This document shows positions 34,034 to 53,051 of a stretch of 55,752 nucleotides of DNA, piece after piece (position 1 is the first letter of the stretch; each line of letters opens with the position of its first letter). The notes under the pieces are model-generated. The model saw only the letters and a list, made by a program, of their open reading frames with translations. It had not been told where the DNA came from and did not search any database. The stretch is from Actinomycetes bacterium (GTDB lineage: Bacteria; Actinomycetota; Acidimicrobiia; Acidimicrobiales; Bog-793): assembly GCA_021791795.1 (NCBI GenBank), contig JAJYVX010000003.1, positions 1 to 55,752 of the forward strand. Reading direction: 5' to 3'. Position numbers and translations under genes: made by a program.

Positions 34034-34271
34034 CCGTGGCCAATGCCAGGGACACGGCCAATGCGTGATAGCTGCGCCGGAGCTCTTCGAGCTGGACGAC
34101 GACGGCTTGTCACGGGCGCTGCGGAACGAGGTGACCGGCGAAGACATCGGGGCGGCAAGGTCTGCAGAGCTCGTCTGCCCCGTCTCTGCCATCCGGTTCA
34201 CCCCTGAACCGCCCCGGACGAGCGGAGTGCCGAACGAAGGACCTCTCACAGGACGAGGAGGAGAGCGATGA
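34014..34271 (+). CDS. Small [3Fe-4S]-type ferredoxin
   Basis: CQGHGQC...CP (CxxHxxC...CP) cluster motif. 85 aa. AGGGGAGGAG RBS. Overlaps the upstream gene by 20 nt. Confidence 0.8.
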   Translation: MARLEVDRGQCQGHGQCVIAAPELFELDDDGLSRALRNEVTGEDIGAARSAELVCPVSAIRFTPEPPRTSGVPNEGPLTGRGGER

Positions 34272-36849: not shown

Positions 36850-37644
36850 TCATCCGCGCTCGGCATACGAACCGTGAATGTCGGTCACGGCCTCGACGAG
36901 CGCGTCGACCACCACCCGAAGGAAGCGCTCCCCCGCCTCCTTGGAGGCCACTGAAGGATCTCCGAAGATGGACGGATGCCCGTCCTCTGGGTGAGGATGG
37001 GCCCCGTAGCTGCGCACCGGAGTTCCTGGTGCCACGAGGTCCCAGCCGACGAGCGGCGGTCTTACGCCCTCGAGACGCTCGAGGTGCACCAGCTCCGGCC
37101 GGAGCGCGAGCTGCACGGAGGTCTCGAATTCACCGCCGTGACCCATCCCGCCGACCGCAGAGCGCCGCAGCTCGTGGATCGCCGATGCCCCTGGTTCCCA
37201 GTAGCTGACCGCAGCGACCAAGAGGTCGCCGTCGTCGGCATGCGCGTCGGAGACCCGTCGGGCGGCTACATCGTTCGCAGTGCCGTTCGGCCGATTGCCG
37301 TTCAGGAGCAGGATGCGTTTGAAGCCTGCCCCGACGAGGGACTCGCACACTTCGACCACCACTTGCTGGTACGTCTCGGCAGAGAGGGAGATCGTGCCGG
37401 CGAAGCTGGCGAACGTCGCTGAATAGCCGTAGACGACTGGTGGCGCCACGAGGGCGCCGATCCTTTCGGCGAGCAGCAGGGCGATCGTCTCCGCCTGGTG
37501 AGTGTCGGCGTCGAGGGGCAGATGTGGCCCGTGTGCCTCCACGGCGCCGGTCGGGACGATCACGAGACGGCGCTCTTCCATCGCCCGTATGGCGTCGGTC
37601 CAGGTCAGGTTCCCCAGGCGATGCTCGAAGTGCGTCGCTTCCAC
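36850..37644 (-). CDS. Creatininase-family amidohydrolase
   Basis: LVIVPTGAVEAHGPHLPLDADT motif. GTG at 37644 with GAAAGGAA RBS. The ORF-track TTG at 37674 is the alternative start. Confidence 0.85.
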   Translation of the reverse strand: MEATHFEHRLGNLTWTDAIRAMEERRLVIVPTGAVEAHGPHLPLDADTHQAETIALLLAERIGALVAPPVVYGYSATFASFAGTISLSAETYQQVVVEVCESLVGAGFKRILLLNGNRPNGTANDVAARRVSDAHADDGDLLVAAVSYWEPGASAIHELRRSAVGGMGHGGEFETSVQLALRPELVHLERLEGVRPPLVGWDLVAPGTPVRSYGAHPHPEDGHPSIFGDPSVASKEAGERFLRVVVDALVEAVTDIHGSYAERG

Positions 37645-37694
37645 TTGTGTTCCTTTCGGGGTCGGGGGTGTCAAGGATCGAGGCGGAGTCCCGG

Positions 37695-38618
37695 TCAGTC
37701 TCCGCCTCTTCGATCCGGATCAAGAAGCGGATGAGGAAACGGTGCGACCGCCGCCGCAAACAGCGACTCGCCGTACCCGGCGTACATGCGCAGGTTGCGA
37801 TCGGCGAGGTGGTCGAACAGTTGCGGGTGACTCGAACCGGGGGCGACGGAGGTGAACTGCTCGCCGTCGAGCGTGGCGGTGACCCAGCCCTCCTGGCTGG
37901 TCCCCCTCGCGAGCACCGCAGCAGTAGGGCCGACGACGAGTGAGTTGCCGAAGTAGATCACACCGGCCGGATCGCGTCCCACGGCGTTCGCCGCCACGAC
38001 GAAGACGTGGTTGTCGTAGGCGCGCGCCCGAGTCGTCAGCTCGAAGATGTCGGCGGGTCGCAAGAAGGCCGACGGTCGCACGAGGACCTCGGCCCCGAGC
38101 ACGGCGGAGACCCGGGCGAGCTCAGGGAAGTCGCCGTCGTAGCAGATCATCGTCCCGACTCGACCGAGCTCCGTCTCGAGCACGCTTGCCCTGTCACCGC
38201 TCGTCACCCAGCCGCCTCCATCGATCCGCTCGCCGGCGAAGAGGTGCGTCTTGCGATATGCGCCGAGCATGCCTCCCGGGCCGAAGAGCGCGGCGGTGTT
38301 GTAGACGATCCCTTCGCTCGGGCCGCGCTCGTAGGTTCCGGCGACGACGTGCACCCGGAAGCGCTCGCAAGCCTCGGCGATGGGGTCGGTGACAGCTCCG
38401 GGGACGTTGCTCAGGAGGCGCCACAGCCGGCTCGGGGTGACACCGGGGGTGAACCCGGTCGACACGGCCTCCGGCAGCACGAGCAGCTCGGCTCCGGTCT
38501 GCTCCACACAACGGACGACCCATTCCGTCGCCCGCTCGACATTCCTTGCGATGGCGCGGGCGTTGAGCGCATTCGACTCGGGGGCGACCTGCAGCGCGGC
38601 CGCTACGCAACGCCTCAC
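37695..38618 (-). CDS. Carbon-nitrogen hydrolase (nitrilase superfamily; carbamoylase/amidase-like)
   Basis: LLVLPEA (Glu) and GTMICYDGDFPE (Cys) motifs. The GTG at 38618 overlaps the upstream stop as GTGA. The 428-aa ORF in the track is an Arg-rich artefactual extension. Confidence 0.85.
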   Translation of the reverse strand: MRRCVAAALQVAPESNALNARAIARNVERATEWVVRCVEQTGAELLVLPEAVSTGFTPGVTPSRLWRLLSNVPGAVTDPIAEACERFRVHVVAGTYERGPSEGIVYNTAALFGPGGMLGAYRKTHLFAGERIDGGGWVTSGDRASVLETELGRVGTMICYDGDFPELARVSAVLGAEVLVRPSAFLRPADIFELTTRARAYDNHVFVVAANAVGRDPAGVIYFGNSLVVGPTAAVLARGTSQEGWVTATLDGEQFTSVAPGSSHPQLFDHLADRNLRMYAGYGESLFAAAVAPFPHPLLDPDRRGGD

Positions 38619-40276
38619 AACGCTGCCCGACGGCGGGGCACGGCGGTGCCGGCCGCGGAAGGGAAGCCCCGGCATGGATCGTCGCTCATGGTCCTGCCGA
38701 GCGCCTCGAGACGCTCGCTCCGGCGGAGACGGCGTCGTACCTCGGGCATCGCGGCGAGCGAGGCGAGCGCGCAGGTCGTCTCGAGCGCCATGCGGACGAC
38801 GAAGGATTCGTCGCAGCCGTCGCCCTCGGTGACCACCTCGTCGACGATCCCGGACCCGAGCAGCGCCGGTGCATCGATCCGCTGTGCGGCCGCGACCTGG
38901 CCCGCTCTCTTCGGCGTCGAGTAGAGCACGACCGACGAACCTTCGGGCGCGAGCGGCGCCAGCCAGGCGGACTCGGCACACAGCACTCTGTCGGCGGGAA
39001 GCAGCGCGAGCGCCGTTCCGCCTGCTCCCTCGCCGAGCAGCACCGAGAGCGTAGGTGTCTCGAGCGCGACAAGGTCTGCGAGGCAGCGGCCGAGCTCGAA
39101 CACGAAGCCGTCGAGCTCGGCGCTCTCGTCGAGCTCGGGACCGGGCGTGTCGATGACTGTCACCACGGCGAGTCCGAGCTCAGCCGCAAGGGCGAAACCC
39201 CTGCGCATCTTCCTCACTCCCGCAACCGTCTGCCGGCATCGCGCCGAACGGTCGTGGCCGATCACCACTGCGGGCTCCGAACCGACCCGCCCGATTGCGA
39301 GCAGGACCGAGCGGTCGTCCCCCTCGGCCGTGCCGTTGCCGTGCAGCTCTGTCACAGCGGTCGCCGCCTGGGCGAGGAACTCGCGCGCTCCCGGACGTGC
39401 GCTGCGCCGAGTCTCGAGCACAGCGTTCCAGGCAGCCGGTTGTCGCCGCTTGGTGCTCGATCCTGGCATGTCGCCCGGCAGCGCCGGATCGGCTTCCGTG
39501 CCGAGCCGGCACGGCTCGCGCCTCCGGCGATCTGCCACCACGGCGAGGAGCCGGGACACGCGTTCCCGCAATTCTGCCGGCGATACCACCTCGTCGACGA
39601 GGCCGGCGGCTGCGAGCCGTTCGGCTCCTTGCACGCCGGCGGGGAGCGGCCGACCACCGACCGCCTCGTAGACCTTCGGACCGACGAAGCCGATGCGGGC
39701 AGCCGGCGCGGCGAAGGTGACGTGCCCGAGCGCGCCGAGAGCGACGAGCGCGCCCCCGAACGTCGGGTTCGTCAGGTAGACGAGATAAGGGAGACCACGG
39801 CTCCGCAGGCGGAGCAGCGCTTCGGCGATCTTCGCCAGCTGGACGAATGCCATCGTGCCTTCGTCCAGCCGGGCACCCCCGGACGAAAGGACCGCCAGCA
39901 TGGGCAGACCCTCCGAGGTACTCCTCGTGAAAGCGGCACGCAGTTGACCGCCCTCGGCGACGCCGATGGTTCCGCCGTGTCGTTCGAAGCGCGTGGCGAC
40001 GATCGCGAGCGGCGTACCGCCGACCGACGCCCGGCCGGCGAGCACCACCGCATCGCGCTCAGACGTTCCGCTGTCTCTGCTGCCTACCGGTCCTTCTTCT
40101 CCGAAGTGCCAGGCCTCGAAGCTGCCGTGGTCCAGCACTTCTTCCAGGACGGCTTCGACGGTTGGAAGCGATCCAGGCTTGCAACCGCCTGGGTCGGGGC
40201 TCACCTCAAGAGTTCGTGCGCCATCGCAGCTCGAACCACACCTCCCGCTTGGCCAGGTGCCGACGTTCGAGACCAC
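38615..40276 (-). CDS. Fused carboxyltransferase (AccD-like beta domain plus AccA-like alpha domain)
   Basis: The N-terminal half (GGTIGVAEGGQL...MLAVLSSGGARLDEG...NPTFGGA) is AccD-like. The C-terminal half (VIDTPGPELD...LLGEGAGGTALAL) is AccA-like. No N-terminal Cys4 zinc ribbon. The start is uncertain; a GTG at 40276 abuts the upstream TGA. Confidence 0.8.
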   Translation of the reverse strand: MVSNVGTWPSGRCGSSCDGARTLEVSPDPGGCKPGSLPTVEAVLEEVLDHGSFEAWHFGEEGPVGSRDSGTSERDAVVLAGRASVGGTPLAIVATRFERHGGTIGVAEGGQLRAAFTRSTSEGLPMLAVLSSGGARLDEGTMAFVQLAKIAEALLRLRSRGLPYLVYLTNPTFGGALVALGALGHVTFAAPAARIGFVGPKVYEAVGGRPLPAGVQGAERLAAAGLVDEVVSPAELRERVSRLLAVVADRRRREPCRLGTEADPALPGDMPGSSTKRRQPAAWNAVLETRRSARPGAREFLAQAATAVTELHGNGTAEGDDRSVLLAIGRVGSEPAVVIGHDRSARCRQTVAGVRKMRRGFALAAELGLAVVTVIDTPGPELDESAELDGFVFELGRCLADLVALETPTLSVLLGEGAGGTALALLPADRVLCAESAWLAPLAPEGSSVVLYSTPKRAGQVAAAQRIDAPALLGSGIVDEVVTEGDGCDESFVVRMALETTCALASLAAMPEVRRRLRRSERLEALGRTMSDDPCRGFPSAAGTAVPRRRAAL

Positions 40277-41362
40277 TCACAGCGAGGCCACTTGAGAGAG
40301 GTACTGCTGGTAGACGAGCGGGTGCGCCGCCTCGAAGCTGCCGATGTTGGCCCTCGTGGCGATCCCCTGGAAGCAATCCCGGACGAACGGGCTCGTCGAT
40401 CCGGTCTCCAGCTTCTGGCGGAGACCCATGGCGGCGACAAGTCCCGTCTGCGCAGCCGAGTAGTAGCGGTCTGCTGCGAGATAGGGAGTTCCGAGCCACT
40501 TGTGCACCATCTCGAGGTCTCCGTCACTCGTGACATGTGTGATGTGGGTGATTCCCTTGGACTGCAGATAGCTGGCGATGCCGTCGCCCATGGCGGCCGC
40601 GTAGTCGACGATGGTGGTCACGTCCGGGTGGGCCGCGAGCGCCGACTGGACGACACTTATGGCAGTGGTCCGTGAGAAGAACCCCTGCTGCCGCACCACG
40701 ATGTCGAAGCCCGATCCTGCTAGCGAGGCGTTGAGACCCTGGTCAATCACCTCGGAGAAGCCCTGGCCGACGATGCCCTGCACGACGACCGTCGGACCCG
40801 GCTTGGCGTGCGCTTTCAGGTAGTCGCCGATCAGTTGACCCCCTTTGAAGGAATCGACGTACGCGACCGTGCAGTAGTCCTTGTCAGCTGCCGACTGGCC
40901 GGGGTAGTTGGCGCCCGGCCAGAGTGTGTTCGCCACAGGAATGCCCTGAGCGGCCGCCTTAGCTGCGCCTTGGTTCGCAGCCGCGTCGGAGACGGCCAAG
41001 ATGACGAGGCCGGCGATGCCGGTCGACAACATGGACTCGATGTTGTTGAGCTGCGTCTCGACGTTGAAGTCCGCCTGGGTGATGGTGAGCTGGTATTGCG
41101 TTCCCTTGAGTGCCTCCTTCACGCCGGTGGCCACGTACTGGGTGTACGGAACGTTGCCGTTGACTGCGAGGCCGATCGTCTTCCCCTTCCCGACGCTCGA
41201 GCTCGAGCCTTTGCTGCTGCCGGTCGATCCGGTCGTGTTGCTGGCGCTCGGCCCGCTCGAGCATGCTTCGAGCAGCCCTCCAGTGAGGAGAACGCCGCCG
41301 GCAAGTGCCGAGGAGCGCAAGAACTGGCGTCGATTGAGCTGGTGGTCTTCGTGGCGTGGCAT
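40277..41362 (-). CDS. Sugar-type ABC transporter substrate-binding protein (periplasmic binding protein type I fold)
   Basis: Tat-like/lipoprotein N-terminus RRQFLRSSALAGGVLLTGGLLEACSS and a Ser/Gly linker, then a ribose-binding-like core. AAAGGGGGAGAAG RBS. Confidence 0.85.
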   Translation of the reverse strand: MPRHEDHQLNRRQFLRSSALAGGVLLTGGLLEACSSGPSASNTTGSTGSSKGSSSSVGKGKTIGLAVNGNVPYTQYVATGVKEALKGTQYQLTITQADFNVETQLNNIESMLSTGIAGLVILAVSDAAANQGAAKAAAQGIPVANTLWPGANYPGQSAADKDYCTVAYVDSFKGGQLIGDYLKAHAKPGPTVVVQGIVGQGFSEVIDQGLNASLAGSGFDIVVRQQGFFSRTTAISVVQSALAAHPDVTTIVDYAAAMGDGIASYLQSKGITHITHVTSDGDLEMVHKWLGTPYLAADRYYSAAQTGLVAAMGLRQKLETGSTSPFVRDCFQGIATRANIGSFEAAHPLVYQQYLSQVASL

Positions 41363-41511
41363 GGAGTCTTCTCCCCCTTTGGTTCTTCCCGGCTAGCTGC
41401 CGGATGCTCTGTTATGTGCCCGACGCTGTGCAATCGGATCTCTCGGCGAGGAGCGCTGCCGGTCTCGCGTCTCCTGCCCCGGCGCTGCTCGCCGGTCGCG
41501 GTGCCCGCCGT

Positions 41512-42768
41512 TCACGCCGTTCCGCCACCTCTTCCACTGTCGCCGCCAGGCGACGAGGAGTCGCCAGCCGACGAGGAGTCGCCAGCCGACGAGGAGTCGC
41601 CAGCCGACGAGGAGTCGCCAGCCGACGAGGAACCGCCCCGATGGAACGCCGTCCCTGCGCCCGACAGATTCGCCGGACGGTGCAGCAGCGACGCAAGGCC
41701 GCGCCGCAAGCTCTGCCACAAGCGCTCACTGCCCTGCCGGTCGCTCAGCGCCGACAACGTCACCGCTATGACAAGTACGGCTCCGTATACAGCGCCCTGC
41801 CAAGTCCCGGAGATGTTGAGGAAGATCAGCGCTGAGCTGATCACCCCGAGAAGCACCACGGCGAGCACCGTGCCCACGATCGAACCCTTCCCTCCGAGAA
41901 GAGTGGCACCTCCGAGCACGGCGGCGGCGACCGCCTGCAGCTCGAGCCCGCTCCCCATCTGGGGGTCGCCGGCTCCGAGGCGCGCCATGAGTATGAGCGC
42001 GGCCGGAGCGACGAGAGCTCCGTTCAGCACGAAGACCGCCAGCTTCACCGAACGGGTCGGCACCCCGCTCAGATACGCCGCCTGCTCGTTCGCACCGACG
42101 GCGAACACGTGGCGCCCGTAACGCGTGTAGCGGAGGCCGAGCCAGCACAGCAGGGCAAGTAGGGCGAAAATGACCGTCGGGGTTCGGACCCCGAACCACG
42201 AGTCGACCGCGAGCACGTTGAACGACGAGTTGATCGGGATCGGTGTCGAGTTGGCGATGACGAGCGCCGCCGAAGACAGCAGGCTGAGGCCGCCGAGTGT
42301 GAGGATGAAGGCGGGGACTCTCACGTAGGTGACGAGCAGTCCCCAGAAGAGTCCGACTGCAGCTCCGATCGCGATGACAGCGAGGACGATCGCCCAGGTC
42401 GGGACCGAGGGCGGGAGCAGCAGCTTCGCCGCGAGGACGCCGGAGAGCGACACGGCGCTTCCGACCGAGAGGTCGAGCTCGCCTGCGATGAGGAGCAGCG
42501 TCTGCCCGAGTGCCAGGATGCCGAGCGTCGACGACTCGCTGAGGATGCCTTGGATGTTTGATCCCGAGACGAAAGAGGAGTCCCGGCTCGAGGTGTAGGC
42601 ACCGATGGCGACGATCGCGAGAACGAGAGGAAGGAAGATCCTCACGACCTCCTTCGGCAGACGTCTGGAGCGCGTCACTGCACCAGCAGGAGCCTGTGAT
42701 GTCACGTCCATGGCGCCGGCATCCCTTTCAGCAGTGCTCATTGCTCCTCCCCCTGCGGCCACGCTCAT
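41512..42768 (-). CDS. Sugar-type ABC transporter permease (BPD_transp_2) with repetitive Ser/Gly/Asp C-terminal tail
   Basis: About 10 TM segments, then a roughly 70-aa hydrophilic tail containing (GDSSSA)x4. ATGA overlap with the ATPase gene. Confidence 0.85.
   Translation of the reverse strand: MSVAAGGGAMSTAERDAGAMDVTSQAPAGAVTRSRRLPKEVVRIFLPLVLAIVAIGAYTSSRDSSFVSGSNIQGILSESSTLGILALGQTLLLIAGELDLSVGSAVSLSGVLAAKLLLPPSVPTWAIVLAVIAIGAAVGLFWGLLVTYVRVPAFILTLGGLSLLSSAALVIANSTPIPINSSFNVLAVDSWFGVRTPTVIFALLALLCWLGLRYTRYGRHVFAVGANEQAAYLSGVPTRSVKLAVFVLNGALVAPAALILMARLGAGDPQMGSGLELQAVAAAVLGGATLLGGKGSIVGTVLAVVLLGVISSALIFLNISGTWQGAVYGAVLVIAVTLSALSDRQGSERLWQSLRRGLASLLHRPANLSGAGTAFHRGGSSSAGDSSSAGDSSSAGDSSSAGDSSSPGGDSGRGGGTA
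41551..41632. repeat. Perfect 18-bp tandem repeat, 4.5 copies (CGACGAGGAGTCGCCAGC)
   Basis: Identical copies at 41551-41568, 41569-41586, 41587-41604 and 41605-41622, plus a partial copy at 41623-41632. On the minus strand it encodes (GDSSSA)n in the permease tail. Confidence 0.95.
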
Positions 42769-44282: not shown

Positions 44283-46672
44283 CCAGCCCGGGTCGCCGCG
44301 TGGAGGCTGGTGGGGCTGAGCGGGACATCGAGCAGGTGTCCGTGAAGGAGCGGGGCGAGCGCGTCCTCGACAGCCGAGGCGAAGGCAGCGGCGACGGGAA
44401 TCGTGCCCGCTTCGCCGACTCCTTTCACTCCGAGTGGATTGCGCGGGCTCGGGGTCTCGAGATGGCTGATCTCGACGCGAGGCACCTCGGTCGCGTACGG
44501 CATGAGGAACTCCATGAGGCTCGCATTGCGCAGGTTGCCTTCGGCGTCATAGTCGAGGAGCTCGTAGAAGGCTCCTCCCATGCCTTGAGCGACTCCGCCG
44601 ATGACCTGCCCCTCGACGATCATCGGGTTGATCATCCGACCGCAGTCGTGAACGCAGACGTACCGCTTCACCTTGACCTCGAAGGTCGCCGGATCGACCT
44701 CCACGATCGCGCCGTGCACGCCGTAAGCCCACGTCGTGCTCGCCGGGCTGAAGTAGTCGGTCGCTTCAAGGCCGGGATGCGCCCCCTCCGCGAGGGCCGC
44801 GCCGTCGCGGCGAGCCGCTGGCGTGAACTGCGTCGCCGACTGGGCGGCCTTGTTGAAGGCGTAGCGAAGCGGGTTGGACATCGTCGCCACCTCGGCCAGG
44901 GTCAGGGCTCTCGACTCGACTCCTTGGACGAACACCTTGCCCTCTTCGATCACGATGTCCTCGGGTGCAGCCTCGAACATCTGCGACGCCTGGTGAACGA
45001 TCTGCTCGCGAACGATCAGGGCGGCTTTGCGTATGGCGTTCCCGCTCACCACGGCTGCGCGGCTCGCGAACGTGGCGACTCCCCAGTCGAACTCCCCGGT
45101 GTCGCCTTCCACGACGACGACGTCGGACGGGGACACGCCCACCTCGTCGGCGGCGATCTGGGCGAAGGACGTGGCGTGCCCTTGACCCTGGCTCGAAAGC
45201 CCGGTGTTGACGTACACCTTGCCCGTGATCGGGTGGACCTTCACGTGGCCGCCCTCGTAAGGCCCGAGCCCCGTGCCCTCCACGTAGCAGGCGAGCCCCA
45301 GGCCGAGGTAGCGGCCCTCGCTCCGCGCCGCCTCCTGCTCGGCACGGAAGGCGGGCGGGTCGAGCGCCTCCTCGAGAAGCGACAGCGCCCGAGCGTAGTC
45401 GCCCCCGTCGTAGCTCACGGGCTGCCCGTCGGCGAAGATCAGGCCCGGCCGGTCGTAGGGGAACTCTTCGGTGCCGATGAAGTTGCGCCGCCGGATCTCG
45501 AACCGATCGATGCCGAGGTCGTCGGCGAGCACGTCCATCGCTCGCTCGATGGCGAAGCAGGCATGCGGCCTGCCGCATCCCCGGTAGGGAGTGACAGGAA
45601 CGGTGTTGGTGTAGACAGCCTTGAAGTCGACGGAGATGTTCGGGATCCGGTAGGAACCCGCTATCTGGCCGGCTGCGACCTGGGCGACTGCCAGCCCGTA
45701 AGGGATGAACGCACCGGTGTCGTGGAGGAAGGAGTCGCGAAGCCCGGTCACCAGTCCGTCCCGCGTGGCCGCCAACTCGATGTGGTGCACCTGGAGGCGC
45801 TCGTGGGTCGACCCGAGGAAATTCTCCTGCCGATCCTCGATGTACTTCACCGGCCGGTTGAGCTTCACGGCCGCCCACGGCACCAGCACCTCGTCGGGGT
45901 AGAAGAGGAGGACCTTCTGACCGAAGCCACCGCCGACGTCCGGCGCGACAACCCGTACCCGGTGCTCGTCGAGACCGAACAGGCTGGCGAGACCGCCCCG
46001 CACCGAGATGGGTGCCTGTGTACCGTCCCAGACGGTGAGTTCCCCGAGCACCGAGTCCCAGCGGGCCGCGACAGCTCGGGGCTCCATCGGCGCAGCCGAG
46101 CTCCGCTCGACCCGAACGGTGACGCTGGTCACATGCTCGGCCGAGGCGAAGGCCGCATCTGGCTCGCCGGAGCGCTGCCGGCTGTGCGCGGCGACGTTGC
46201 CCGCGACTCCTTCGTGCACGCTGCGTGCTCCCGACGCGACGGCCCGATCGACGCCGACGACGGCCTCGAGCGGTTCGTAGACCACCTCGACGAGATCTGC
46301 CGCGTCCTCGGCGACGTAACGATCGTCCGCGACCACCATCGCCACCGTCTGGCCGACGTAGAAGACCTCGCCTCTCGCGAGCGGTCGCTGAGTGCGAGGG
46401 GACGTGAGCGAGGGATCAGGTATCAACAGCGGCATCTCGGTGTCGAGATGCTCGATGTCGTCGCAGGTCACGACGAGGTGGACACCTTCGAGCGCCATCG
46501 CCTGGCTCGTGTCGACCGAGATGATTCGGGCGCTGGCCATCGGACTGCGGACGAACGCGACGGCGAGCGCGCCCTCGAGTGTGATGTCGTCGATGTAACG
46601 CCCGCGGCCAGTGAGGAGGCGCTCGTCCTCGTTGCGCCTGACACGGGTGCCGAAGCTCGGGGCGCTCGTCAC
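44279..46672 (-). CDS. Molybdopterin-binding large subunit of a xanthine dehydrogenase/CoxL-family hydroxylase
   Basis: RVRRNEDERLLTGRGRYIDDI N-terminus and a TPYRGCGRP active-site-loop region. About 797 aa. The GTG at 46672 overlaps the small-subunit stop as GTGA. Confidence 0.9.
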   Translation of the reverse strand: MTSAPSFGTRVRRNEDERLLTGRGRYIDDITLEGALAVAFVRSPMASARIISVDTSQAMALEGVHLVVTCDDIEHLDTEMPLLIPDPSLTSPRTQRPLARGEVFYVGQTVAMVVADDRYVAEDAADLVEVVYEPLEAVVGVDRAVASGARSVHEGVAGNVAAHSRQRSGEPDAAFASAEHVTSVTVRVERSSAAPMEPRAVAARWDSVLGELTVWDGTQAPISVRGGLASLFGLDEHRVRVVAPDVGGGFGQKVLLFYPDEVLVPWAAVKLNRPVKYIEDRQENFLGSTHERLQVHHIELAATRDGLVTGLRDSFLHDTGAFIPYGLAVAQVAAGQIAGSYRIPNISVDFKAVYTNTVPVTPYRGCGRPHACFAIERAMDVLADDLGIDRFEIRRRNFIGTEEFPYDRPGLIFADGQPVSYDGGDYARALSLLEEALDPPAFRAEQEAARSEGRYLGLGLACYVEGTGLGPYEGGHVKVHPITGKVYVNTGLSSQGQGHATSFAQIAADEVGVSPSDVVVVEGDTGEFDWGVATFASRAAVVSGNAIRKAALIVREQIVHQASQMFEAAPEDIVIEEGKVFVQGVESRALTLAEVATMSNPLRYAFNKAAQSATQFTPAARRDGAALAEGAHPGLEATDYFSPASTTWAYGVHGAIVEVDPATFEVKVKRYVCVHDCGRMINPMIVEGQVIGGVAQGMGGAFYELLDYDAEGNLRNASLMEFLMPYATEVPRVEISHLETPSPRNPLGVKGVGEAGTIPVAAAFASAVEDALAPLLHGHLLDVPLSPTSLHAATRAG

Positions 46673-47217
46673 GCCGGTGCTCCCTTGCCGGCGTCTCCGT
46701 CCCGGCCCATCGCCACCGCAGCCTGCCGTACTGCGTCGACGATTCCCTGGTAGCCCGTGCAACGACAGAGGTTGCCCGAGATCATCTCCCTCACGCCTTC
46801 CTCGCTCAGGTCGAGCTCGTCGGGTGAGTTCAGCACCTCAAGGATGGAAATCACGAAACCGGGCGTGCAGTACCCGCACTGCAGGCCGTGGCAGTCGCTC
46901 AGCGCCTGCTGCACGGGATGAAGGCCACCGTCGGCGCTCTTCACGCCCTCGATCGTCGTCAGGCTCAAGCCGTCGACCTGGCAGGCGAGCGTGAGGCACG
47001 AGCGCGTCGCACGACCGTCGACAAGCACCGTGCAGCAACCGCACACCCCGTGCTCGCACCCGACGTGCGTTCCGGTAAGCCCGAGGTCGTGGCGGAGAAA
47101 GTCGCTCAAGAGGCGCCGCACCGGCACGACGCGCTCGTAGGCGGTGCCGTTCACGACAACCCGGAGACTCGTCTTCTGCTCGGCCTCCACCGCCTCGCTC
47201 GTCTCCACTCCTGTCAC
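46669..47217 (-). CDS. [2Fe-2S]-binding small subunit (CoxS-like)
   Basis: CEHGVCGCCTV and CGYCTPG cluster motifs. GTGA overlap with the upstream gene. Confidence 0.92.
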   Translation of the reverse strand: MTGVETSEAVEAEQKTSLRVVVNGTAYERVVPVRRLLSDFLRHDLGLTGTHVGCEHGVCGCCTVLVDGRATRSCLTLACQVDGLSLTTIEGVKSADGGLHPVQQALSDCHGLQCGYCTPGFVISILEVLNSPDELDLSEEGVREMISGNLCRCTGYQGIVDAVRQAAVAMGRDGDAGKGAPA

Positions 47218-48089
47218 GACGTCCTCCTCTCCAGGCGCGCGGCAGCTCGGAGGAGCGAGCGGCGCACGAGCGCTTCCACGAGCTGGCGACGGTAAGCCGT
47301 GCTCGCCTGCGTCTCATCGCCCGCCGTCACATACCCCGCGGCTGCCCGGCCCGCCTCTCGCAAGGCTTTCTCGGTGAGGGGTCGGGAGAGCAACGCCTCC
47401 TCGGCCGTGGAAAGGCGGACCGGCGTGGTGCCGATCCCGCAGGCCGCGAGGCGCACCTGCCCGACGCACCGGTCACCGTCGAGCTTCAGCGCGGCGCAGA
47501 CCCCTGCGAGGGCGAAGTCGCCGTGGCGACGAGTGACCTCTAGGAACGACCAGCCCCAAGACGGCTCCAGCGCCGGGAACGAGACCGAGGTGATCACCTC
47601 GTTCGGCTCAAGGCTGGTCGTCAAGTGGAAGACGAAGAGCTCCCCGGCACTGATCCGGCGCCTGCCTCGTACGCCCGCCACCTCGACGCTGCCGTCGAGG
47701 CAGCTGAGCAGTGCCGGCAGCTCGGCTGCCGGATCCGCATGGGCGATGCTCCCCCCGACCGTACCTCGGTTGCGGATGACGGCATGGGCGACCAGCCGAA
47801 GAGACTCCGCGATGAGCGGGTTGGCCCGCGCCGCGCCCTCGTCACGCTCAAGATCCCGCTGCCGGGTCATCGCCCCGACCTCGACCACATCGTTCTGCAC
47901 CCGCACGAAGGCGAGCTCGCTCGCTTTGCGCAGATCGATCACCTGCTCGGGTCGCCCCAGGCGGAAGTTCATGATCGGCAACAGGCTCTGACCGCCGGCG
48001 AGCACGGCCGCGCCCGGGTGCGCGTCGCGCAGCGCGACCGCTTCCGCCAGGCTTTCCGGTGCGAAGTACTCGAAGCGCGACGGTTTCAC
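47214..48089 (-). CDS. FAD-binding medium subunit (CoxM-like)
   Basis: VKPSRFEYFAPESLAEAVAL...LAGGQSLLPIMNFR. The GTG at 48089 overlaps the hyuB-like stop as GTGA. The 421-aa ORF is an artefactual extension. Confidence 0.88.
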   Translation of the reverse strand: MKPSRFEYFAPESLAEAVALRDAHPGAAVLAGGQSLLPIMNFRLGRPEQVIDLRKASELAFVRVQNDVVEVGAMTRQRDLERDEGAARANPLIAESLRLVAHAVIRNRGTVGGSIAHADPAAELPALLSCLDGSVEVAGVRGRRRISAGELFVFHLTTSLEPNEVITSVSFPALEPSWGWSFLEVTRRHGDFALAGVCAALKLDGDRCVGQVRLAACGIGTTPVRLSTAEEALLSRPLTEKALREAGRAAAGYVTAGDETQASTAYRRQLVEALVRRSLLRAAARLERRTS

Positions 48090-50005
48090 GGGCGTGTCGC
48101 CAGCTCCGAGACCACCGGTTCCGTCGGTCCTGCTTGCCACCCTTCGTCCGGATCCTTCCACCACTCCGGTGCTCGGTAACGGCCCTCGGAACGGGCGAGC
48201 GCGACGTAGGGCCCTCGGTCGAACATCGGCACGTCCGTGCGCTCGGCGGAGAGGCGGGCTCTGAGCTCGAGCGTCGCGGCCTGGTCGACCTCGACCGAAC
48301 CGCTGCTCTCCTCGAGCACCACCCCGTAGTCCCGCCTGGCTCCCTCTGGGCTCACGAGCCCGCACGTGACGTCGTAGGCGACGAGCTCGGGTTCGCGCAT
48401 CAACGGATCGCCCCAGCCACCGCCACCCGTGGTCACGACATGGATCTCCTCGCCGGCGGAGACAGCGACGTCGTCGCACATTCCCGGCAGCTCCTCGATG
48501 GACCCGTCGGGCCGGCGGCGGCTCACGCGGTACGTGCCCCCGCAGCGACCCCCGTTCGTCCCGTAGGTGTTGACGAGGGACCGGTCGGCGTTCGAGAGGA
48601 GCTGCGTGTCGACGAGGGGGCGGATCGTCTTGTCGTAGCCGAGCCCGCCTCGCCGATAGCCCGCGCCGCCGGAGTCCGTCTTCAGCGCGAGCCGTTCGAT
48701 GCGGACGGGGTAGTTCGTCTCGGAGAACTCGACCGGCAGGTTGCGCGAGTTGGGCACGACGTGAACGACGTCGCTGCCGTCCGCCCAGGGCCGTCCGGGA
48801 CCACCACCGCCGAGCACCTCGCGAAAGAGGAAGAAGTCGTCCTTATCGTTCCGCCCGTACAGGCCCCAGATACGGATCGTCTCGTGATCGGCCGGCATCC
48901 TTCCGCCGGTCGCCTTTGCCAAGAGTGCCGCGAACACGCCGAGAGATCTGAGCAGGATGAAGAACCTGAGTCCGGTCGGCTTGCCGAAGTTGGGCGTCAC
49001 GAGCGTGCCTGTCTCGGGGAACTTCACCTCGATCACGTCGAGGACGCCCTCGTTCATGTCGATCTCGGCAGCCCTCTCCGGTGTGTCCGCGAGCGAGCGC
49101 AGCACCGGCGCCATCCACTTGCGCACGAAACGGCCGTCGGAGTAGTTGATCGCCCAGTTGATGGGGCCGTCGGCCTCGGGATCGGTGCCCGAGAAGTCGA
49201 GGACGATCTTGTCGGGCGTCTTCGTCATCGTCATGCGCAGTGCGTGCAGACGTGGGGCCGTCACACCGTCGCACTCGATGAAGTCCTCCCAGTGGTAGAC
49301 GCCGTCTGCGATCTTCGGGAGAAGCTCGCTTCGGATCACCCTGGCGCACTTGGAGATGACCTCGTCGAACGCCTCCTCGAGCAGGTCGACGCCGTAACGG
49401 TCCGCCAGCTCGACGATCCGCCGGACACCTATCAGCGCGGCCCCTCTCTCGGCGTCGAGGTCGCCCTTCAAGTGGTCCGAGAGCCGCGAGTTGCGGGCGA
49501 TGACGTCGAAGGTCGAGTTTCGCCGGCCACGCTCGTAGAGCTTGATGGGCGGCACGACCAGGCCCTCCTGCCACATGTCGACGGCGTGTACAGGGAGGCT
49601 GCCGGGAACCATGCCGCCGACGTCGTCGTGGTGACCGAAGACCTGACTGAAGCCGATCAGTCGGTCTTCCTTGAAAATGGGGATCGTCGTGCAGAGGTCG
49701 GGAATGTGGCCGATCCCCCCGGAGCTGTTGTAGGGGTCGTTCCAGAAGAACACGTCTCCGGGGAAGACGTTGTCGAGACCGAACACCTCGAAGATCGGGT
49801 CCACCACGGCCGAGTACGAGCGCCCAGTCAGCTTGCGCCCGCGTGCGTCGAACAGCGCCACGCGGTAGTCGTGCTGGTCCCGGATCATCGGCGAGCGGGC
49901 CGTGCGTTCCACGGCGGACTCGATCTCGACCTCGGTCGACCGGACGGTCCCCTCGATGACCTCGTAGTCGATCGGGTTGAGTGAGGCAGGAACGTCGATG
50001 CTCAC
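48086..50005 (-). CDS. hyuB: Hydantoinase B/oxoprolinase-family protein
   Basis: NPIDYEVIEGTV...ARSPMIRDQHDY N-terminus typical of HyuB. 639 aa. GTGA overlap with the hyuA-like gene. Confidence 0.9.
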   Translation of the reverse strand: MSIDVPASLNPIDYEVIEGTVRSTEVEIESAVERTARSPMIRDQHDYRVALFDARGRKLTGRSYSAVVDPIFEVFGLDNVFPGDVFFWNDPYNSSGGIGHIPDLCTTIPIFKEDRLIGFSQVFGHHDDVGGMVPGSLPVHAVDMWQEGLVVPPIKLYERGRRNSTFDVIARNSRLSDHLKGDLDAERGAALIGVRRIVELADRYGVDLLEEAFDEVISKCARVIRSELLPKIADGVYHWEDFIECDGVTAPRLHALRMTMTKTPDKIVLDFSGTDPEADGPINWAINYSDGRFVRKWMAPVLRSLADTPERAAEIDMNEGVLDVIEVKFPETGTLVTPNFGKPTGLRFFILLRSLGVFAALLAKATGGRMPADHETIRIWGLYGRNDKDDFFLFREVLGGGGPGRPWADGSDVVHVVPNSRNLPVEFSETNYPVRIERLALKTDSGGAGYRRGGLGYDKTIRPLVDTQLLSNADRSLVNTYGTNGGRCGGTYRVSRRRPDGSIEELPGMCDDVAVSAGEEIHVVTTGGGGWGDPLMREPELVAYDVTCGLVSPEGARRDYGVVLEESSGSVEVDQAATLELRARLSAERTDVPMFDRGPYVALARSEGRYRAPEWWKDPDEGWQAGPTEPVVSELATRP

Positions 50006-52062
50006 GTCGGTTCCCTTTCAAGCAGCAGGTTGTAGGCGGCGTCGCAGCGTGCATGCCAGCCTCTCGGCAGTACCACGGTGGAGCCGTACTCCTCGACGAT
50101 CGTCGGCCCCTCGAGCTCGCTGCCGGGCCGAAGACTCGCCCGGGCCACGACCGCGCAATCGGTCCAGCCGTCCTTACGCCAGTAAACCTGACGGCTCGGG
50201 CGCCTTCCGTCGCTCCCGCCCGGCATGGCCGGGTCGACGACGTCGATGTTCGGACGGGCAATCCGCCCGACCGCCTGCACGCGAAGGTTCACGAGCTCGA
50301 CCTCCTGCTCGCCTCGGTAGGAGTAGCCGAACTCCCGATCGTGCGCGGCATGGAAGAGATCCCACATCGCCTCGGTGCTCTCGGTGACGGAGAACTCCTC
50401 GGGCACGAGCACCCGGACCTCGTAGCTCTGACCGCGGTAGCGAAGATCAGCCGCGAGAGCGGCGGTCATGTCACCCTCCCGCACGCCTTCAGCCCGCAGC
50501 TCCTCGTACCCGGTTGCCCCGAGCTCGGACCACGCGGCGATGATCTCCTTCGGGTCGGCCGTCGACTCCCTGCGCACGAACGTTCGCACGAGGTCGCGCC
50601 GCATGTCCGAGACCTGGAGACCGAGCGCCGACAAGTTGCCGGGGTTGGGTGGGGACAGGATCCTGCGCGAGCCGAGGAACTCGGCGACATCCGCGGCGAG
50701 CATCCCTCCGGCACCACCGAACGACACGAGCCAGTAGGTGGAAGGGTCGATGCCCTTGTGCACGGTGACACGACGGATCCCGTGGACCTGGTTGGCGGCG
50801 GCGATCTCGAGCACCCCGGCGGCAGCCTCTTCGGGAGCGAGGCCGACTCGCTCGCCGAGCTCCTCGAGCGCCGCGTAGGCAAGGTCGTGGCGCAGAGCAA
50901 GCTCGCCGCCGATGAGCGCTTCGGGAAGGCGGCCAAGGACGAGGGCCGCGTCCGTGACCGTCGGCTCCGTCCCGCCTCTGCCGTAGCTGATCGGGCCGGG
51001 ATCGGCACCGGCGCTGCGCGGGCCGACCTTGAGCGAGCCCTGCGGGTCCACCCAGGCGATCGAGCCACCCCCGGTTCCGACCGTCGCAAGGTCGATTATC
51101 GGCACCTTCACGGGGTAACCCTCGATCACCGTCTCGCTCGAAAGCACCGGCAGACCGTTGCGCACCACACACACGTCTGTCGAAGTGCCACCGACGTCGA
51201 ACGTGAGGATGTCGCCGATACCGCTCAGGCCAGCCATGTGGATGGCGCCGAGCACGCCGGCCGCCGGCCCCGAGAAGAGCATGGTCACCGGGCGCTCGGC
51301 TGCGCGCCTTGCGGTCACGACGCCGCCGTTCGACTGCATGATCAAGAACGCGCAGTCACCCTGGTCCGTCTGGATCCGCCGCTCTGCCTCTCTCAGGTAC
51401 CTCGCGCAGTAGGGCTTCACCATCACGTCGAGCAAGGTCGTCATCGCCCGCTCGTACTCGCGATACTCAGGCAACACCGTCGAGGACAACGAGACGGCTA
51501 GACCTGGGAAGTGCTCGGCTGCGATCTCCCCGACTCGCCGCTCGTGCTCGCTCGACGCATAGGAGTGCAACAGGCAGACAGCGACACGGTCGACCCCGCG
51601 AGCCTGGAGCCGCGAGAGCGCCTCGTGCACGCTGCGCTCGTCGACAGCCTCGAGCTCGGCACCGGAGAAGTCGAGCCGTCCACCGACCTCCTCGACGAGA
51701 TGAAGCGGCACCAGGCGGGGCGGCTTGACCCAGAAGAAGGAGTTGCCGTAGCCGTCGGGCACTGACTGGCGGGCGATCTCGATGATGTGCCGGAAGCCAC
51801 GCGTGACTAGCAGCCCTATTCCTTCGAACTCGTGCTCGACGACGGCGTTCGTCGCGCTCGTGGTCCCGTGCACGACCATCTCCACTTCGTCCGCTGAGCG
51901 GCCGGCGCTGCGGAGGATCTTCTCGATGCCGGCCTGCAGGGCGACACTTGGGTCCTGCGGCGTCGAAGGCGTCTTCGTCGCATAGGTACGGCCCCCCGCT
52001 TCGTCTATGGCGACGACATCGGTGAACGTTCCACCGGTGTCGACGGACACTCGCAGGGTCAC
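50002..52062 (-). CDS. hyuA: Hydantoinase A/oxoprolinase-family protein (ATP-dependent)
   Basis: VSVDTGGTFTDVV N-terminal ASKHA-fold motif and FDVGGTSTDV. 686 aa. GGAGGAGG RBS. Confidence 0.9.
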   Translation of the reverse strand: MTLRVSVDTGGTFTDVVAIDEAGGRTYATKTPSTPQDPSVALQAGIEKILRSAGRSADEVEMVVHGTTSATNAVVEHEFEGIGLLVTRGFRHIIEIARQSVPDGYGNSFFWVKPPRLVPLHLVEEVGGRLDFSGAELEAVDERSVHEALSRLQARGVDRVAVCLLHSYASSEHERRVGEIAAEHFPGLAVSLSSTVLPEYREYERAMTTLLDVMVKPYCARYLREAERRIQTDQGDCAFLIMQSNGGVVTARRAAERPVTMLFSGPAAGVLGAIHMAGLSGIGDILTFDVGGTSTDVCVVRNGLPVLSSETVIEGYPVKVPIIDLATVGTGGGSIAWVDPQGSLKVGPRSAGADPGPISYGRGGTEPTVTDAALVLGRLPEALIGGELALRHDLAYAALEELGERVGLAPEEAAAGVLEIAAANQVHGIRRVTVHKGIDPSTYWLVSFGGAGGMLAADVAEFLGSRRILSPPNPGNLSALGLQVSDMRRDLVRTFVRRESTADPKEIIAAWSELGATGYEELRAEGVREGDMTAALAADLRYRGQSYEVRVLVPEEFSVTESTEAMWDLFHAAHDREFGYSYRGEQEVELVNLRVQAVGRIARPNIDVVDPAMPGGSDGRRPSRQVYWRKDGWTDCAVVARASLRPGSELEGPTIVEEYGSTVVLPRGWHARCDAAYNLLLEREPT

Positions 52063-52081: not shown

Positions 52082-52106
52082 TATCCGCTGATCGGATACA
52101 CTATCC
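52082..52106. promoter_or_regulatory. Overlapping palindromes, candidate IclR operator between the divergent hyuA-like and iclR genes
   Basis: TATCCG-ctgat-CGGATA (52082-52098) and GGATA-cac-TATCC (52094-52106), 20-45 nt upstream of the hyuA-like start. Confidence 0.4.
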
Positions 52107-52172: not shown

Positions 52173-53051
52173 ATGCCGGGAACTGTGCGGGACAAGGATC
52201 TCCCGCCGAGGGGCAAGTTCTTGACCGGCAACACCAGAGATGGCGGGGCTTCGCCGACGCTGCGAGGACTGCACCGCGCCGTCGACGTCCTCGAAGCATT
52301 GGCATCCGAGCCGATGCGGCCGAGCGAGCTGTGCAGGCACCTCGGCCTCCCTTGGACCTCGGTGCATCGTCTCGTCTCCCAGTTGGTCGCGCAGCGCTTC
52401 GTCGAGAAGGAGCCGGACTCGGGCCGATACCGGGTGGGGCAGGCGTGCTGGCTCGTCGGGAGCGCTTACACGGTCCACCACCCAGTACTCGACGTCGGCC
52501 GACCGAGCGTCGAGTTGCTCGCCGCGAACGTCGATGCCGTGGCGCAGCTCTGCGAGCGGGCCGACCGCCTCGCCCTCACCCTGCTCTCCGTGCACCGCTC
52601 CGACTCGGAAAGCATCCTCAAGACGACTTACGGCTATCACTTCCCCCTGCACTGCGGCTCAAAGGGCCAGGTCTTGCTCGCGTACTCAGACGCGCAGTTC
52701 ATCGAGGACTACGTGAGAGAACCGCTCGAGCAGCTCACCCCCGAGACCATCACGGATCCCGGGCATCTGCTCGAAGTGCTGGCCCGGATACGCGAGCTCG
52801 GATTCGCCCGTACGGAGGCCGACGTCCAGACGTTCACGGGGTCGCTTGCCGCACCAGTCTTCGGCCGAGACGGACAAGTCCTCGCATCAGTCTGCTTGAT
52901 AGCGCGGCGCTCGAAGCTCGCCGACAACGACACGGTCGACTTAATGACCGAGCGATTGCTCGGAGTCACCCGCAGCATCTCGGCAGCGCTCGGCTGGCGA
53001 CCGGGTGCGGACCAATCGCCGCGACAACCTGACCGGCAGTCTCATCGGTAG
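52173..53051 (+). CDS. IclR-family transcriptional regulator
   Basis: Winged-helix segment LRGLHRAVDVLEALASEPMRPSELCRHLGLPWTSVHRLVSQLV and a C-terminal IclR effector domain. Confidence 0.88.
   Translation: MPGTVRDKDLPPRGKFLTGNTRDGGASPTLRGLHRAVDVLEALASEPMRPSELCRHLGLPWTSVHRLVSQLVAQRFVEKEPDSGRYRVGQACWLVGSAYTVHHPVLDVGRPSVELLAANVDAVAQLCERADRLALTLLSVHRSDSESILKTTYGYHFPLHCGSKGQVLLAYSDAQFIEDYVREPLEQLTPETITDPGHLLEVLARIRELGFARTEADVQTFTGSLAAPVFGRDGQVLASVCLIARRSKLADNDTVDLMTERLLGVTRSISAALGWRPGADQSPRQPDRQSHR

Follow-up and report, generated by a model that had tools for sequence, protein, structure and literature searches.

Which compound is degraded by the products of an operon that combines a hydantoinase-type HyuA/HyuB pair, a CoxMSL-type molybdenum (Mo) hydroxylase, an ATP-binding cassette (ABC) importer, a fused carboxyltransferase, a CN-hydrolase and a creatininase-family protein? 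This question is raised by positions 36850-52062 (minus strand) of a 55,752 nt stretch of an Acidimicrobiales genome (contig JAJYVX010000003.1, assembly GCA_021791795.1; the whole stretch is referred to below as the window, and its G+C content is ~68%). Eleven co-directional open reading frames (ORFs) were found there, each with the Pfam domains named by the original prediction, which had identified every gene family correctly and had described the substrate as unknown and the catabolic system as undescribed. The latter statement turned out to be too strong, as the gene set is tied to barbiturate and to malonate by related loci. Comparison of these loci makes it probable that the eleven genes, together with a divergent iclR-CoA-transferase gene pair, constitute one IclR-controlled regulon for the oxidative catabolism of pyrimidine bases, most likely uracil and/or thymine; pyrimidines and barbiturate had been among the candidate substrates proposed at the outset. 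The predicted route leads from uracil or thymine via barbiturate, ureidomalonate and malonate to acetyl-CoA and is well supported by gene content as a whole, with direct support for barbiturate and malonate as intermediates; the assignments of individual enzymes to steps, which we infer, are the weakest part of this reading.

Some 95 related loci (designated by L and a number) formed the basis of the comparison, 80 of which were obtained by a scan with CoxL restricted to one genome per species, and the window proteins were mapped onto them by tblastn and Pfam. The best match to CoxL, with 83% identity, was found in a metagenome-assembled genome (MAG) of the Acidimicrobiales. A conserved core consisting of HyuA-HyuB, CoxMSL, the creatininase-like protein and IclR was present in Alphaproteobacteria (Aminobacter, Mesorhizobium, Xanthobacteraceae, Defluviicoccus), in Actinobacteria (Streptosporangium, Pseudonocardia, Pimelobacter) and in Thermoleophilia, and further loci of this composition, on abundant marine contigs, were retrieved when creatininase-like homologues were looked up. 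HyuB was the most conserved protein of the module (64-87% identity), and HyuA homologues with 55-80% identity adjoined a Mo hydroxylase in 61 loci. Altogether, the neighbourhood search for co-occurrence that the original prediction had called for showed that these families keep recurring as a group, in over 60 loci distributed over Actinobacteria, Alphaproteobacteria and marine MAGs. A chance mosaic, in which the genes of a sugar importer and of unrelated enzymes point the same way by accident, could draw on the CUT2/sugar-type importer of the window and on a gene order that differs by lineage, yet it is scarcely credible in the face of this recurrence, of a predicted operator motif shared between the loci and of the 4 nt overlaps at the gene junctions of the window. 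Three slots were found to vary between lineages, namely the end module, the transporter and the third hydrolase. Four distant HyuB matches were detected in a plasmid collection, one of them on the Rhodococcus plasmid pRZP2, whose coxL and hyuA look frameshifted. In the relatives, hyuAB or the carboxyltransferase gene was repeatedly flanked by a gene that has no counterpart in the window operon and encodes an NAD(P)-binding protein of the NmrA or SDR family (L003 16525-17388, L071 19690-20529, L090 16886-17752 and L082 441-1199).

The tie to barbiturate was provided by genes of the AtzD/Bar family encoded beside homologues of the window genes. In L094, a creatininase-like orthologue with 61% identity to that of the window overlaps the stop codon of such a gene, whose product was then used as a probe for further members of the family. 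These were located 185 nt downstream of coxL in L069, near CoxMSL in L070, and upstream of an AllG-CoxMSL-CN_hydrolase-HyuAB array in L065. The L070 protein scored 607 bits against PDB entry 5HWE ('Barbiturase') as compared with at most 326 bits against cyanuric acid hydrolases. Five positions discriminate between the two enzymes, barbiturases having Asn195, His321, Lys325, Val345 and Ser/Ala346 where cyanuric acid hydrolases have Arg, Thr, Arg, Gly and Gly (Peat et al., PMC3758960). The complete barbiturase signature (Asn195/His321/Lys325/Val345/Ala346) was seen in L065, L069, L070 and L094, and barbiturase-signature genes were also present in L095 and L096, whereas the L062 and L063 proteins had Thr321, Arg325 and Gly346 as in cyanuric acid hydrolases, but Ala345, position 195 not being located in them. 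In Thermobispora bispora and Sphaerimonospora, a barbiturase homologue lies within 9 kb of genes for HyuB, a CoA-transferase (52% identity to that of the window), a fused carboxyltransferase (45%) and a CN_hydrolase. No AtzD/Bar homologue was detected in the window itself by tblastn. In the classical pathway, the uracil/thymine dehydrogenase and barbiturase are followed by ureidomalonase, which releases malonate and urea (Peat et al., PMC3758960). A Mo hydroxylase encoded beside a barbiturase thus corresponds to the classical oxidative pyrimidine pathway, and homologues of most of the enzyme families of the window are thereby tied to barbiturate.

Two of these loci showed additional features. 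In L094 (8760-13004 and 18317-19609), the barbiturase-signature and creatininase-like genes are accompanied by genes for TRZ/ATZ-family amidohydrolases, a cytosine-deaminase-like protein and a peptide-type ABC transporter, with neither a Mo hydroxylase nor HyuAB in the locus, which may represent a route to barbiturate via deamination of aminopyrimidines. In L096 of Thermobispora bispora (9098-11107), a gene for a carbamate-kinase-like protein of the AA_kinase family (300 amino acids, aa) abuts the barbiturase-signature gene, a hint that some lineages recover carbamoyl phosphate from ureidomalonate.

That ring degradation ends in malonate was indicated by the comparison of lineages, in which one and the same regulon was found to contain a malonyl-CoA synthase with a malonyl-CoA decarboxylase, a family III CoA-transferase with the same decarboxylase, or the CoA-transferase with a carboxyltransferase. 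The first combination was found in alphaproteobacterial loci (Aminobacter, Mesorhizobium, Ferruginivarius and others), where an acyl-CoA synthetase passing the malonyl-CoA synthase model NF005702 (809 bits versus a cut-off of 558) is encoded together with a Pfam MCD malonyl-CoA decarboxylase; the second in the closest relative, L001, which has an iclR-CoA-transferase-MCD operon; and the third, with no MCD, in the window, Streptosporangiaceae, Thermobispora and Sphaerimonospora. In the window, the family III CoA-transferase (421 aa; CoA_transf_3, 391 bits) is encoded on the plus strand at 53068-54333 from a GTG codon at 53068 with the ribosome-binding site GGGGAG. Its gene starts 16 nt after iclR and is predicted to be co-transcribed with it as part of the same system, so that the eleven genes at 36850-52062, to which the original prediction had confined the unit, would make up only part of a larger one. 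The nearest NCBIfam models of the CoA-transferase were dicarboxylate CoA-transferases (succinate-glutarate, oxalate), all below cut-off. The fused AccD-AccA-type carboxyltransferase (38615-40276, up to 553 aa with the start uncertain; Carboxyl_trans and ACCA) gave weak matches to the malonate decarboxylase beta subunit and MdcD. Its gene was always adjacent to that of a family III CoA-transferase or in the same regulon (L003, L006, L009, L012, L095 and L096), directly following it in Streptosporangiaceae and Thermobispora, and was mutually exclusive with MCD. Neither a biotin carboxylase nor a biotin carboxyl carrier protein (BCCP) domain was found among the eleven operon genes or the scanned flanking ORFs, and biotin-dependent carboxylation by this protein was therefore rejected.

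As MatB and MCD take the same regulon slot elsewhere, the CoA-transferase and the carboxyltransferase can be tied to malonate. The simplest reading of the sequence comparison would be that two malonate activations (ligase and CoA-transferase) and two decarboxylases (MCD and carboxyltransferase) are each interchangeable, and we propose that the carboxyltransferase is the equivalent of malonyl-CoA decarboxylase, paired with the neighbouring CoA-transferase as a putative malonate CoA-transferase. Such a module resembles the MatB/MatA system and the biotin-independent MdcA/MdcD-E system in that decarboxylation to an acetyl thioester follows the activation of malonate, with a carboxyltransferase fold serving as decarboxylase as in MdcD/E. 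It differs from them in that a family III CoA-transferase and a single fused AccD-AccA protein would act on free CoA esters, with no acyl carrier protein, MdcA or BCCP.

Evidence for common control came from the region between hyuA and the divergent iclR gene (52173-53051, plus strand; 292 aa, HTH_IclR and IclR_C). These 110 bp contain a perfect palindrome, TATCCGctgatCGGATA, at 52082-52098, as had been noted in the original prediction, and its core ATCCG-N5-CGGAT occurs once in the window as compared with 0.1 occurrences expected by chance. When the relatives were scanned for TATCCG-N5-CGGATA with up to two mismatches, the motif was detected 10-40 nt upstream of hyuA in ~20 loci, and also upstream of iclR and of the creatininase-like gene. 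It further occurred 5' of the ABC ATPase gene in Streptosporangiaceae and Pseudonocardia, between the carboxyltransferase and amidase genes of Pseudonocardia, and upstream of matB and bmp in marine and alphaproteobacterial loci, its carriers thus being spread over Alphaproteobacteria, Actinobacteria and marine MAGs, three groups at the level of phyla. Since the same motif is present in the promoters of homologous genes in dozens of loci, including those of other phyla, the palindrome is far beyond what chance would produce, and its position at transporter and matB promoters suggests shared control of the ring-degrading enzymes, the transporter and the malonate module. Orthologues of the regulator with 40-77% identity were found in 34 loci, and both the divergent arrangement and the predicted palindromic operator are kept in orthologous loci.

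A link to nucleobases was provided by the transporter slot. The importer of the window is encoded by genes for an ATPase with two nucleotide-binding domains (42765-44282, 505 aa; ABC_tran twice, CUT2-type in NCBIfam), a permease (41512-42768, 418 aa; BPD_transp_2) and a periplasmic or lipoprotein substrate-binding protein (40277-41362, 361 aa; Peripla_BP_4). The 3' end of the permease gene contains an 18 bp tandem repeat (41544-41631, 4.9 copies with 98% matches), which encodes a C-terminal tail of the form (SSSAGD)n. Peripla_BP_4 systems are shared by the window and its actinobacterial relatives (binding-protein orthologues with 51-54% identity), and orthologues of the ATPase with 45-47% identity are present in the Streptosporangiaceae and Pseudonocardia clusters. 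Elsewhere, Bmp/PnrA-type ABC systems were found in 33 loci, an SLC23-family permease on the Rhodococcus plasmid, and an NCS2 permease directly upstream of coxM in Terrabacter, which scored 346 bits with the NCBIfam model of RutG, 258 bits with that of uracil permease and 153 bits with that of xanthine permease. The description of the importer as sugar-type in the original prediction holds for its CUT2/Peripla_BP_4 classification, but the system appears to be interchangeable with transporters of two further types, both of them nucleobase-type. We predict that the ligand of the binding protein is the pyrimidine substrate; a sequence search of the PDB with this protein returned only distant ribose-binding proteins (53 bits) and no clue to the ligand. 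Additional nucleobase genes were a uracil phosphoribosyltransferase gene in L086, whose product scored above its equivalog cut-off, and cytosine-deaminase-like genes in L086 and L093.

These observations also bear on the idea that a different nucleobase-like heterocycle, be it a purine analogue, an aminopyrimidine, a methylated pyrimidine or a nucleoside, is funnelled to barbiturate and malonate, which we consider unlikely. The sugar-type binding protein of the window would be compatible with it, as would the XdhAB enzyme of L093 with its conserved xanthine-binding residues, the PucR-type regulator in Rhodococcus, the TRZ/ATZ deaminases beside the barbiturase and creatininase-like genes of L094, and the Rieske/VanA-type oxygenases inside alphaproteobacterial clusters (L030 12890-15365, L040 2479-3840 and L086 19353-20489, one with a ferredoxin reductase), which may demethylate or oxidize methylated pyrimidines ahead of the core pathway. 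However, malonate represents C4-C5-C6 of an unsubstituted pyrimidine and would not be obtained from purines or 5-substituted pyrimidines, the associated genes are those for uracil phosphoribosyltransferase, RutG-like/uracil-permease-like transporters and cytosine-deaminase-like proteins, and the conversion of uracil to barbiturate is the documented bacterial source of the latter (Peat et al., PMC3758960). A purine as substrate was rejected as incompatible with malonate as product.

The reaction that would lead from uracil or thymine into this pathway was sought in the Mo hydroxylase, which is encoded by coxM-like (47214-48089, 291 aa from a GTG at 48089; FAD subunit with FAD_binding_5 and CO_deh_flav_C), coxS-like (46669-47217, 182 aa; Fer2 and Fer2_2) and coxL-like (44279-46672, 797 aa from a GTG at 46672; molybdopterin subunit with Ald_Xan_dh_C, MoCoBD_1 and MoCoBD_2) genes, with the MoCo-binding, FAD and 2x[2Fe-2S] domains of the xanthine dehydrogenase family all present. 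CoxL passed the NCBIfam model NF040766 'CODH_aero_grp5' for the large subunit of aerobic CO dehydrogenase, a model of type 'exception' (1023 bits versus a cut-off of 950). No copy of the Cu-loop motif AY.CSFR of form I CO dehydrogenases, the Cys of which ligates the copper of the Mo-S-Cu centre, was found in the protein, which, as compared with VAYACSFR of Mycobacterium smegmatis CoxL (8UEM), reads TPYRGCG-R with a deletion of two residues. Function as a CO dehydrogenase was rejected on the absence of the Cu-binding loop, and the automatic CO dehydrogenase annotation of this CoxL clade is probably misleading. The closest solved structure was that of quinoline 2-oxidoreductase (Qor; 1T3Q_B, 531 bits), to whose AYRGVG the TPYRGCG loop aligns without gaps, and the glutamate of GVGEAG aligns with the region of the catalytic glutamate of Qor, which is thus kept. 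By these features CoxL appears to be a member of the N-heterocycle hydroxylase clade. With quinoline 2-oxidoreductase, other CoxMSL N-heterocycle hydroxylases and 'form II' CoxL it shares the L/M/S architecture, the Qor-like loop, the catalytic glutamate and, as predicted, hydroxylation beside a ring nitrogen, the difference being that its predicted substrate is a pyrimidine. Enzymes of this class usually attack a carbon adjoining a ring nitrogen, as C6 of uracil is, and we propose that CoxMSL is the orphan uracil/thymine dehydrogenase (EC 1.17.99.4). In L086 (6147-9963) and L093 (3599-8488), an XdhA/XdhB(/XdhC) enzyme is encoded in the place of CoxMSL, between hyuB and the creatininase-like gene. 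CoxG, as a rule a companion of CoxMSL-type enzymes, is encoded inside the homologous clusters L082, L088, L071 and L090, whereas in the window its gene lies 14 kb from the nearest operon end and ~21 kb from coxL.

The score of 617 bits obtained by CoxL with the model of Sulfolobus glyceraldehyde dehydrogenase alpha leaves some room for a hydrolytic order of events as in the Rut pathway, in which HyuAB would open uracil to ureidoacrylate, an amidase would lead via aminoacrylate to malonate semialdehyde, and CoxMSL would oxidize the latter to malonate as an aldehyde oxidoreductase; isochorismatase-like hydrolases with a weak RutB match are indeed encoded directly upstream of hyuA in 22 loci. We nevertheless regard this order as very unlikely, as the barbiturase-signature genes beside CoxMSL homologues and beside a creatininase-like orthologue require barbiturate and not ureidoacrylate, CoxL is closer to quinoline 2-oxidoreductase than to aldehyde enzymes, an XdhAB-type hydroxylase replaces CoxMSL in L086 and L093, and characterized HyuAB enzymes act on saturated lactams and imides.

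Under the oxidative reading, opening of the hydroxylated ring would be assigned to HyuAB. The operon begins with the hyuA-like gene (50002-52062, 686 aa; Hydant_A_N, Hydantoinase_A and Hydant_A_C), whose product is the predicted alpha subunit of an ATP-dependent cyclic-amide hydrolase, and continues with the gene for the beta subunit, HyuB-like (48086-50005, 639 aa; Hydantoinase_B, 420 bits). Both subunits have the full set of Pfam domains, while the specific equivalogs remained below cut-off; the best NCBIfam match of HyuA was caprolactamase alpha (501 bits versus 1000), and HyuB scored 212 bits versus 1000 with caprolactamase beta. A function of the acetone/acetophenone carboxylase type was rejected on much weaker NCBIfam scores than those of the hydrolase type and on the lack of a gamma subunit. 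With N-methylhydantoinase, 5-oxoprolinase and caprolactamase the pair shares the two-subunit architecture, the domains and the predicted ATP-coupled hydrolysis of a cyclic amide or imide, but its scores are far under the equivalog cut-offs, and its Mo hydroxylase and malonate-module partners are unlike those of any characterized member. Barbiturate is a delocalized anion at neutral pH, and HyuB-type enzymes such as those of the 5-oxoprolinase type activate the amide by phosphorylation of its oxygen. The coupling of ring opening to ATP would therefore be chemically sensible by analogy.

The creatininase-family protein (36850-37644, 264 aa from a GTG at 37644; Creatininase, 204 bits) remained below the cut-offs of creatininase TIGR04448 (122 bits versus 235) and MftE (116 versus 172). 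Equivalents of Glu34, His36, Asp45 and His178 are conserved, and the fold and Pfam family are those of creatininase, MftE, ArfB and IolN, but the creatininase motif NGHYEN, with the binuclear-metal ligands His120 and Glu122, is replaced by NGNRPN. Among 120 orthologues, 87 had NGNRPN, 24 NGHRPN and one NGNRPS, the motif not being located in eight; NG(N/H)RPN thus describes the change in the 112 orthologues with a locatable motif, and the context of these genes is barbiturase or HyuAB. In its score and in this motif the protein departs from creatininase (EC 3.5.2.10), and it is proposed, from this context, to be a ureidomalonate (N-acylurea) hydrolase. A third hydrolase slot is occupied by an AS amidase, an isochorismatase-like protein (weakly BiuH/RutB-like) or a CN_hydrolase, which are almost never found together; all three families include ureido or amide hydrolases. 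In the window it is the CN_hydrolase (37695-~38675, ~326 aa with the start uncertain; 150 bits), which reached no NCBIfam equivalog, and whose orthologues with 52-57% identity are encoded between CoxMSL/CoxG and HyuAB in Terrabacter-type and Acidimicrobiales loci. It is proposed to act as an amidase on ureidomalonate or malonamate.

The family names of these hydrolases would also fit catabolism of creatinine and N-methylhydantoin by creatininase, ATP-dependent N-methylhydantoinase (HyuAB) and N-carbamoylsarcosine amidase, the more so as deamination of creatinine is within the reach of cytosine-deaminase-like proteins, N-carbamoylsarcosine amidase is similar to isochorismatase-like hydrolases, and a Creatinase_N/M24 gene is located beside L086. 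This route had already been judged a poor fit in the original prediction, and we too find it highly improbable, as the creatininase-like protein is below the equivalog cut-off and without the NGHYEN motif, and as the route has no place for the Mo hydroxylase, which is always present, nor for the malonate modules, the nucleobase transporters or the proximity to barbiturase genes. The window operon was found to contain neither a creatinase nor an isochorismatase-type N-carbamoylsarcosine amidase. The sox-like genes of the window (10477-14913), once connected with the creatinine route, were wrongly placed there, as they lie in a gene set of the N-methylglutamate type. This methylamine cluster (10477-19972) comprises a DAO gene (10477-11811) and genes for a SoxA-like GCV_T protein (12052-14913), a glutamine-synthetase-like protein (15549-17696) and Glu_synthase/GXGXG/GATase proteins (17009-19972), and by these families would serve the N-methylglutamate pathway and not creatinine/sarcosine catabolism.

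Several observations weigh against a pathway from uracil or thymine via barbiturate. The CoxL homologues encoded beside barbiturase-signature genes (L065, L069 and L070) are just 52-55% identical to the CoxL of the window; the binding protein of the window is of the sugar (CUT2) type; and carboxyltransferases normally need biotin and BCCP, neither of which is provided for here. The Mo enzyme of L093 is above the equivalog cut-off of xanthine_xdhB and keeps the xanthine-binding Glu232, Arg310 and Phe344, so that for this variant a purine-like substrate is possible. Finally, of barbiturase, HyuAB and the creatininase-like protein, two tend to co-occur in the loci examined: HyuAB and the creatininase-like protein in the window and most other loci, barbiturase and the creatininase-like protein in L094, and barbiturase and HyuAB in L065, L075 (at the locus edge), L095 and L096. 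Because of the last combination HyuAB is no simple replacement of barbiturase, and it may serve a parallel branch, for example that of thymine-derived 5-methylbarbiturate, or another ring.

With these points taken into account, the following sequence of events would fit the gene content of the window. The ABC system would import a pyrimidine base, which CoxMSL would hydroxylate at C6, beside N1, to barbiturate or 5-methylbarbiturate. HyuAB would spend ATP to open the resonance-stabilized trioxo-pyrimidine ring, giving ureidomalonate either in the barbiturase reaction or in a parallel branch. The creatininase-like hydrolase could then cut the N-acylurea and the CN-hydrolase remove the remaining amide or ureido nitrogen, yielding malonate and urea, or malonate, NH3 and CO2. 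Malonyl-CoA would be formed by the family III CoA-transferase and decarboxylated to acetyl-CoA by the fused AccD-AccA carboxyltransferase in a free-CoA analogue of the malonate decarboxylase cycle, the whole being controlled by binding of IclR to TATCCG-N5-CGGATA. This scheme agrees with the general chemistry envisaged by the original prediction, in which an N-heterocycle is hydroxylated, a ring is opened at the expense of ATP, an amide is hydrolysed and a carboxyl group is transferred or lost.

The predicted intermediates barbiturate, ureidomalonate and malonate are those of the oxidative pyrimidine pathway of Rhodococcus erythropolis, Mycobacterium and Corynebacterium (EC 1.17.99.4, 3.5.2.1 and 3.5.1.95), in which hydroxylation of the Mo type likewise precedes hydrolytic ring opening, and clusters homologous to that of the window encode proteins with a bona fide barbiturase signature. 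The window differs in having, instead of an AtzD/Toblerone-fold barbiturase, the ATP-dependent HyuAB, the creatininase-family hydrolase and the CN-hydrolase, and in a route that would go past malonate to acetyl-CoA. Isosteric chemistry is known from the cyanuric acid pathway (AtzD, followed by AtzEG/AtzH/AtzF or BiuH), in which a trioxo six-membered ring is opened and the N-acylurea chain is hydrolysed stepwise by members of the same hydrolase families (AS amidase; isochorismatase-like, closest to BiuH); here, in contrast, ring carbon C5 would lead to ureidomalonate and hence malonate, and an upstream Mo hydroxylase is needed.

The layout of the operon is that of eleven co-directional, mostly overlapping genes, as stated by the original prediction. 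Start codons were refined from homology and ribosome-binding sites, which gave the GTG starts of coxM, coxL and the creatininase-like gene, the last ORF having been listed as beginning 10 codons too early. Six junctions then proved to be 4 nt start/stop overlaps or direct abutments, the coxM start and the hyuB stop codon sharing a GTGA overlap. The only two real intergenic gaps, of 149 nt between the permease and binding-protein genes and ~50 nt between the CN-hydrolase and creatininase-like genes, contained no terminator-like site.

Two further gene groups of the window, both on the plus strand, were noted. A co-directional array at 20198-31535 encodes Rieske alpha and beta subunits, CoxG, a thiamine pyrophosphate enzyme, an aminotransferase, an HD protein, an amino-acid ABC transporter, an AstE/AspA-family hydrolase and a DAO oxidase. 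The second group (32825-36669), convergent on the operon and ending 180 nt from the creatininase-like gene, comprises genes for an AllG-like protein (32825-34033), a cupin and an AS amidase as well as two ORFs without assignment. AllG belongs to the family of oxamate carbamoyltransferase subunits, and oxalurate and ureidomalonate are homologues that differ by one carbon. The Terrabacter-type CoxMSL-CN_hydrolase-HyuAB clusters are likewise flanked by AllG/AllH-like genes, which are nearly exclusive with the creatininase-like gene. A role of the AllG-like protein as a phosphorolytic 'malonamate carbamoyltransferase' working with the operon would be speculation, because the identity of those proteins to the window copy is just ~30%.

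The chemistry deduced from the gene content would thus be that of a known kind of pathway, and the enzymes carrying it out look new. The biochemistry of oxidative pyrimidine degradation has been known since the 1950s. In the literature searched, subscription journals lying largely outside the search, we found no published link between this gene set and a substrate, and no published gene for uracil dehydrogenase or ureidomalonase; a 2025 preprint that summarizes pyrimidine pathways cites the oxidative route in general terms only. Within the literature reached, barbiturase is the sole enzyme of the classical pathway with an assigned gene, and the pathway has been called rare, as barbiturase homologues occur in ~3% of genomes (Peat et al., PMC3758960). 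Tentatively, and with rather less assurance than an even chance would give, we suggest that all of the following hold together: CoxMSL is the orphan uracil/thymine dehydrogenase, the creatininase-family protein with the altered metal site is the orphan ureidomalonase, HyuAB is a new ATP-dependent barbiturate-ring hydrolase, and the biotin-independent carboxyltransferase and the CoA-transferase form a new malonate-to-acetyl-CoA module, which would amount to a second, widespread version of the pathway. A pathway held to be rare from the rarity of barbiturase homologues would in that case be common in soil Alphaproteobacteria, Actinobacteria and marine bacterioplankton.

If the assignment to pyrimidine catabolism is true, testable gene candidates for the uracil/thymine dehydrogenase and ureidomalonase would be at hand, a hydantoinase-type ATP-dependent enzyme and a creatininase-type enzyme would take part in barbiturate breakdown, and bacteria would possess an additional way from malonate to acetyl-CoA. 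A large clade of genes from soil and ocean bacteria, those on abundant Tara Oceans contigs included, annotated as 'CO dehydrogenase', 'hydantoinase' and 'creatininase' would then have to be re-annotated as nucleobase-recycling genes, which would bear on estimates of CO-oxidation potential and of the turnover of dissolved organic nitrogen.

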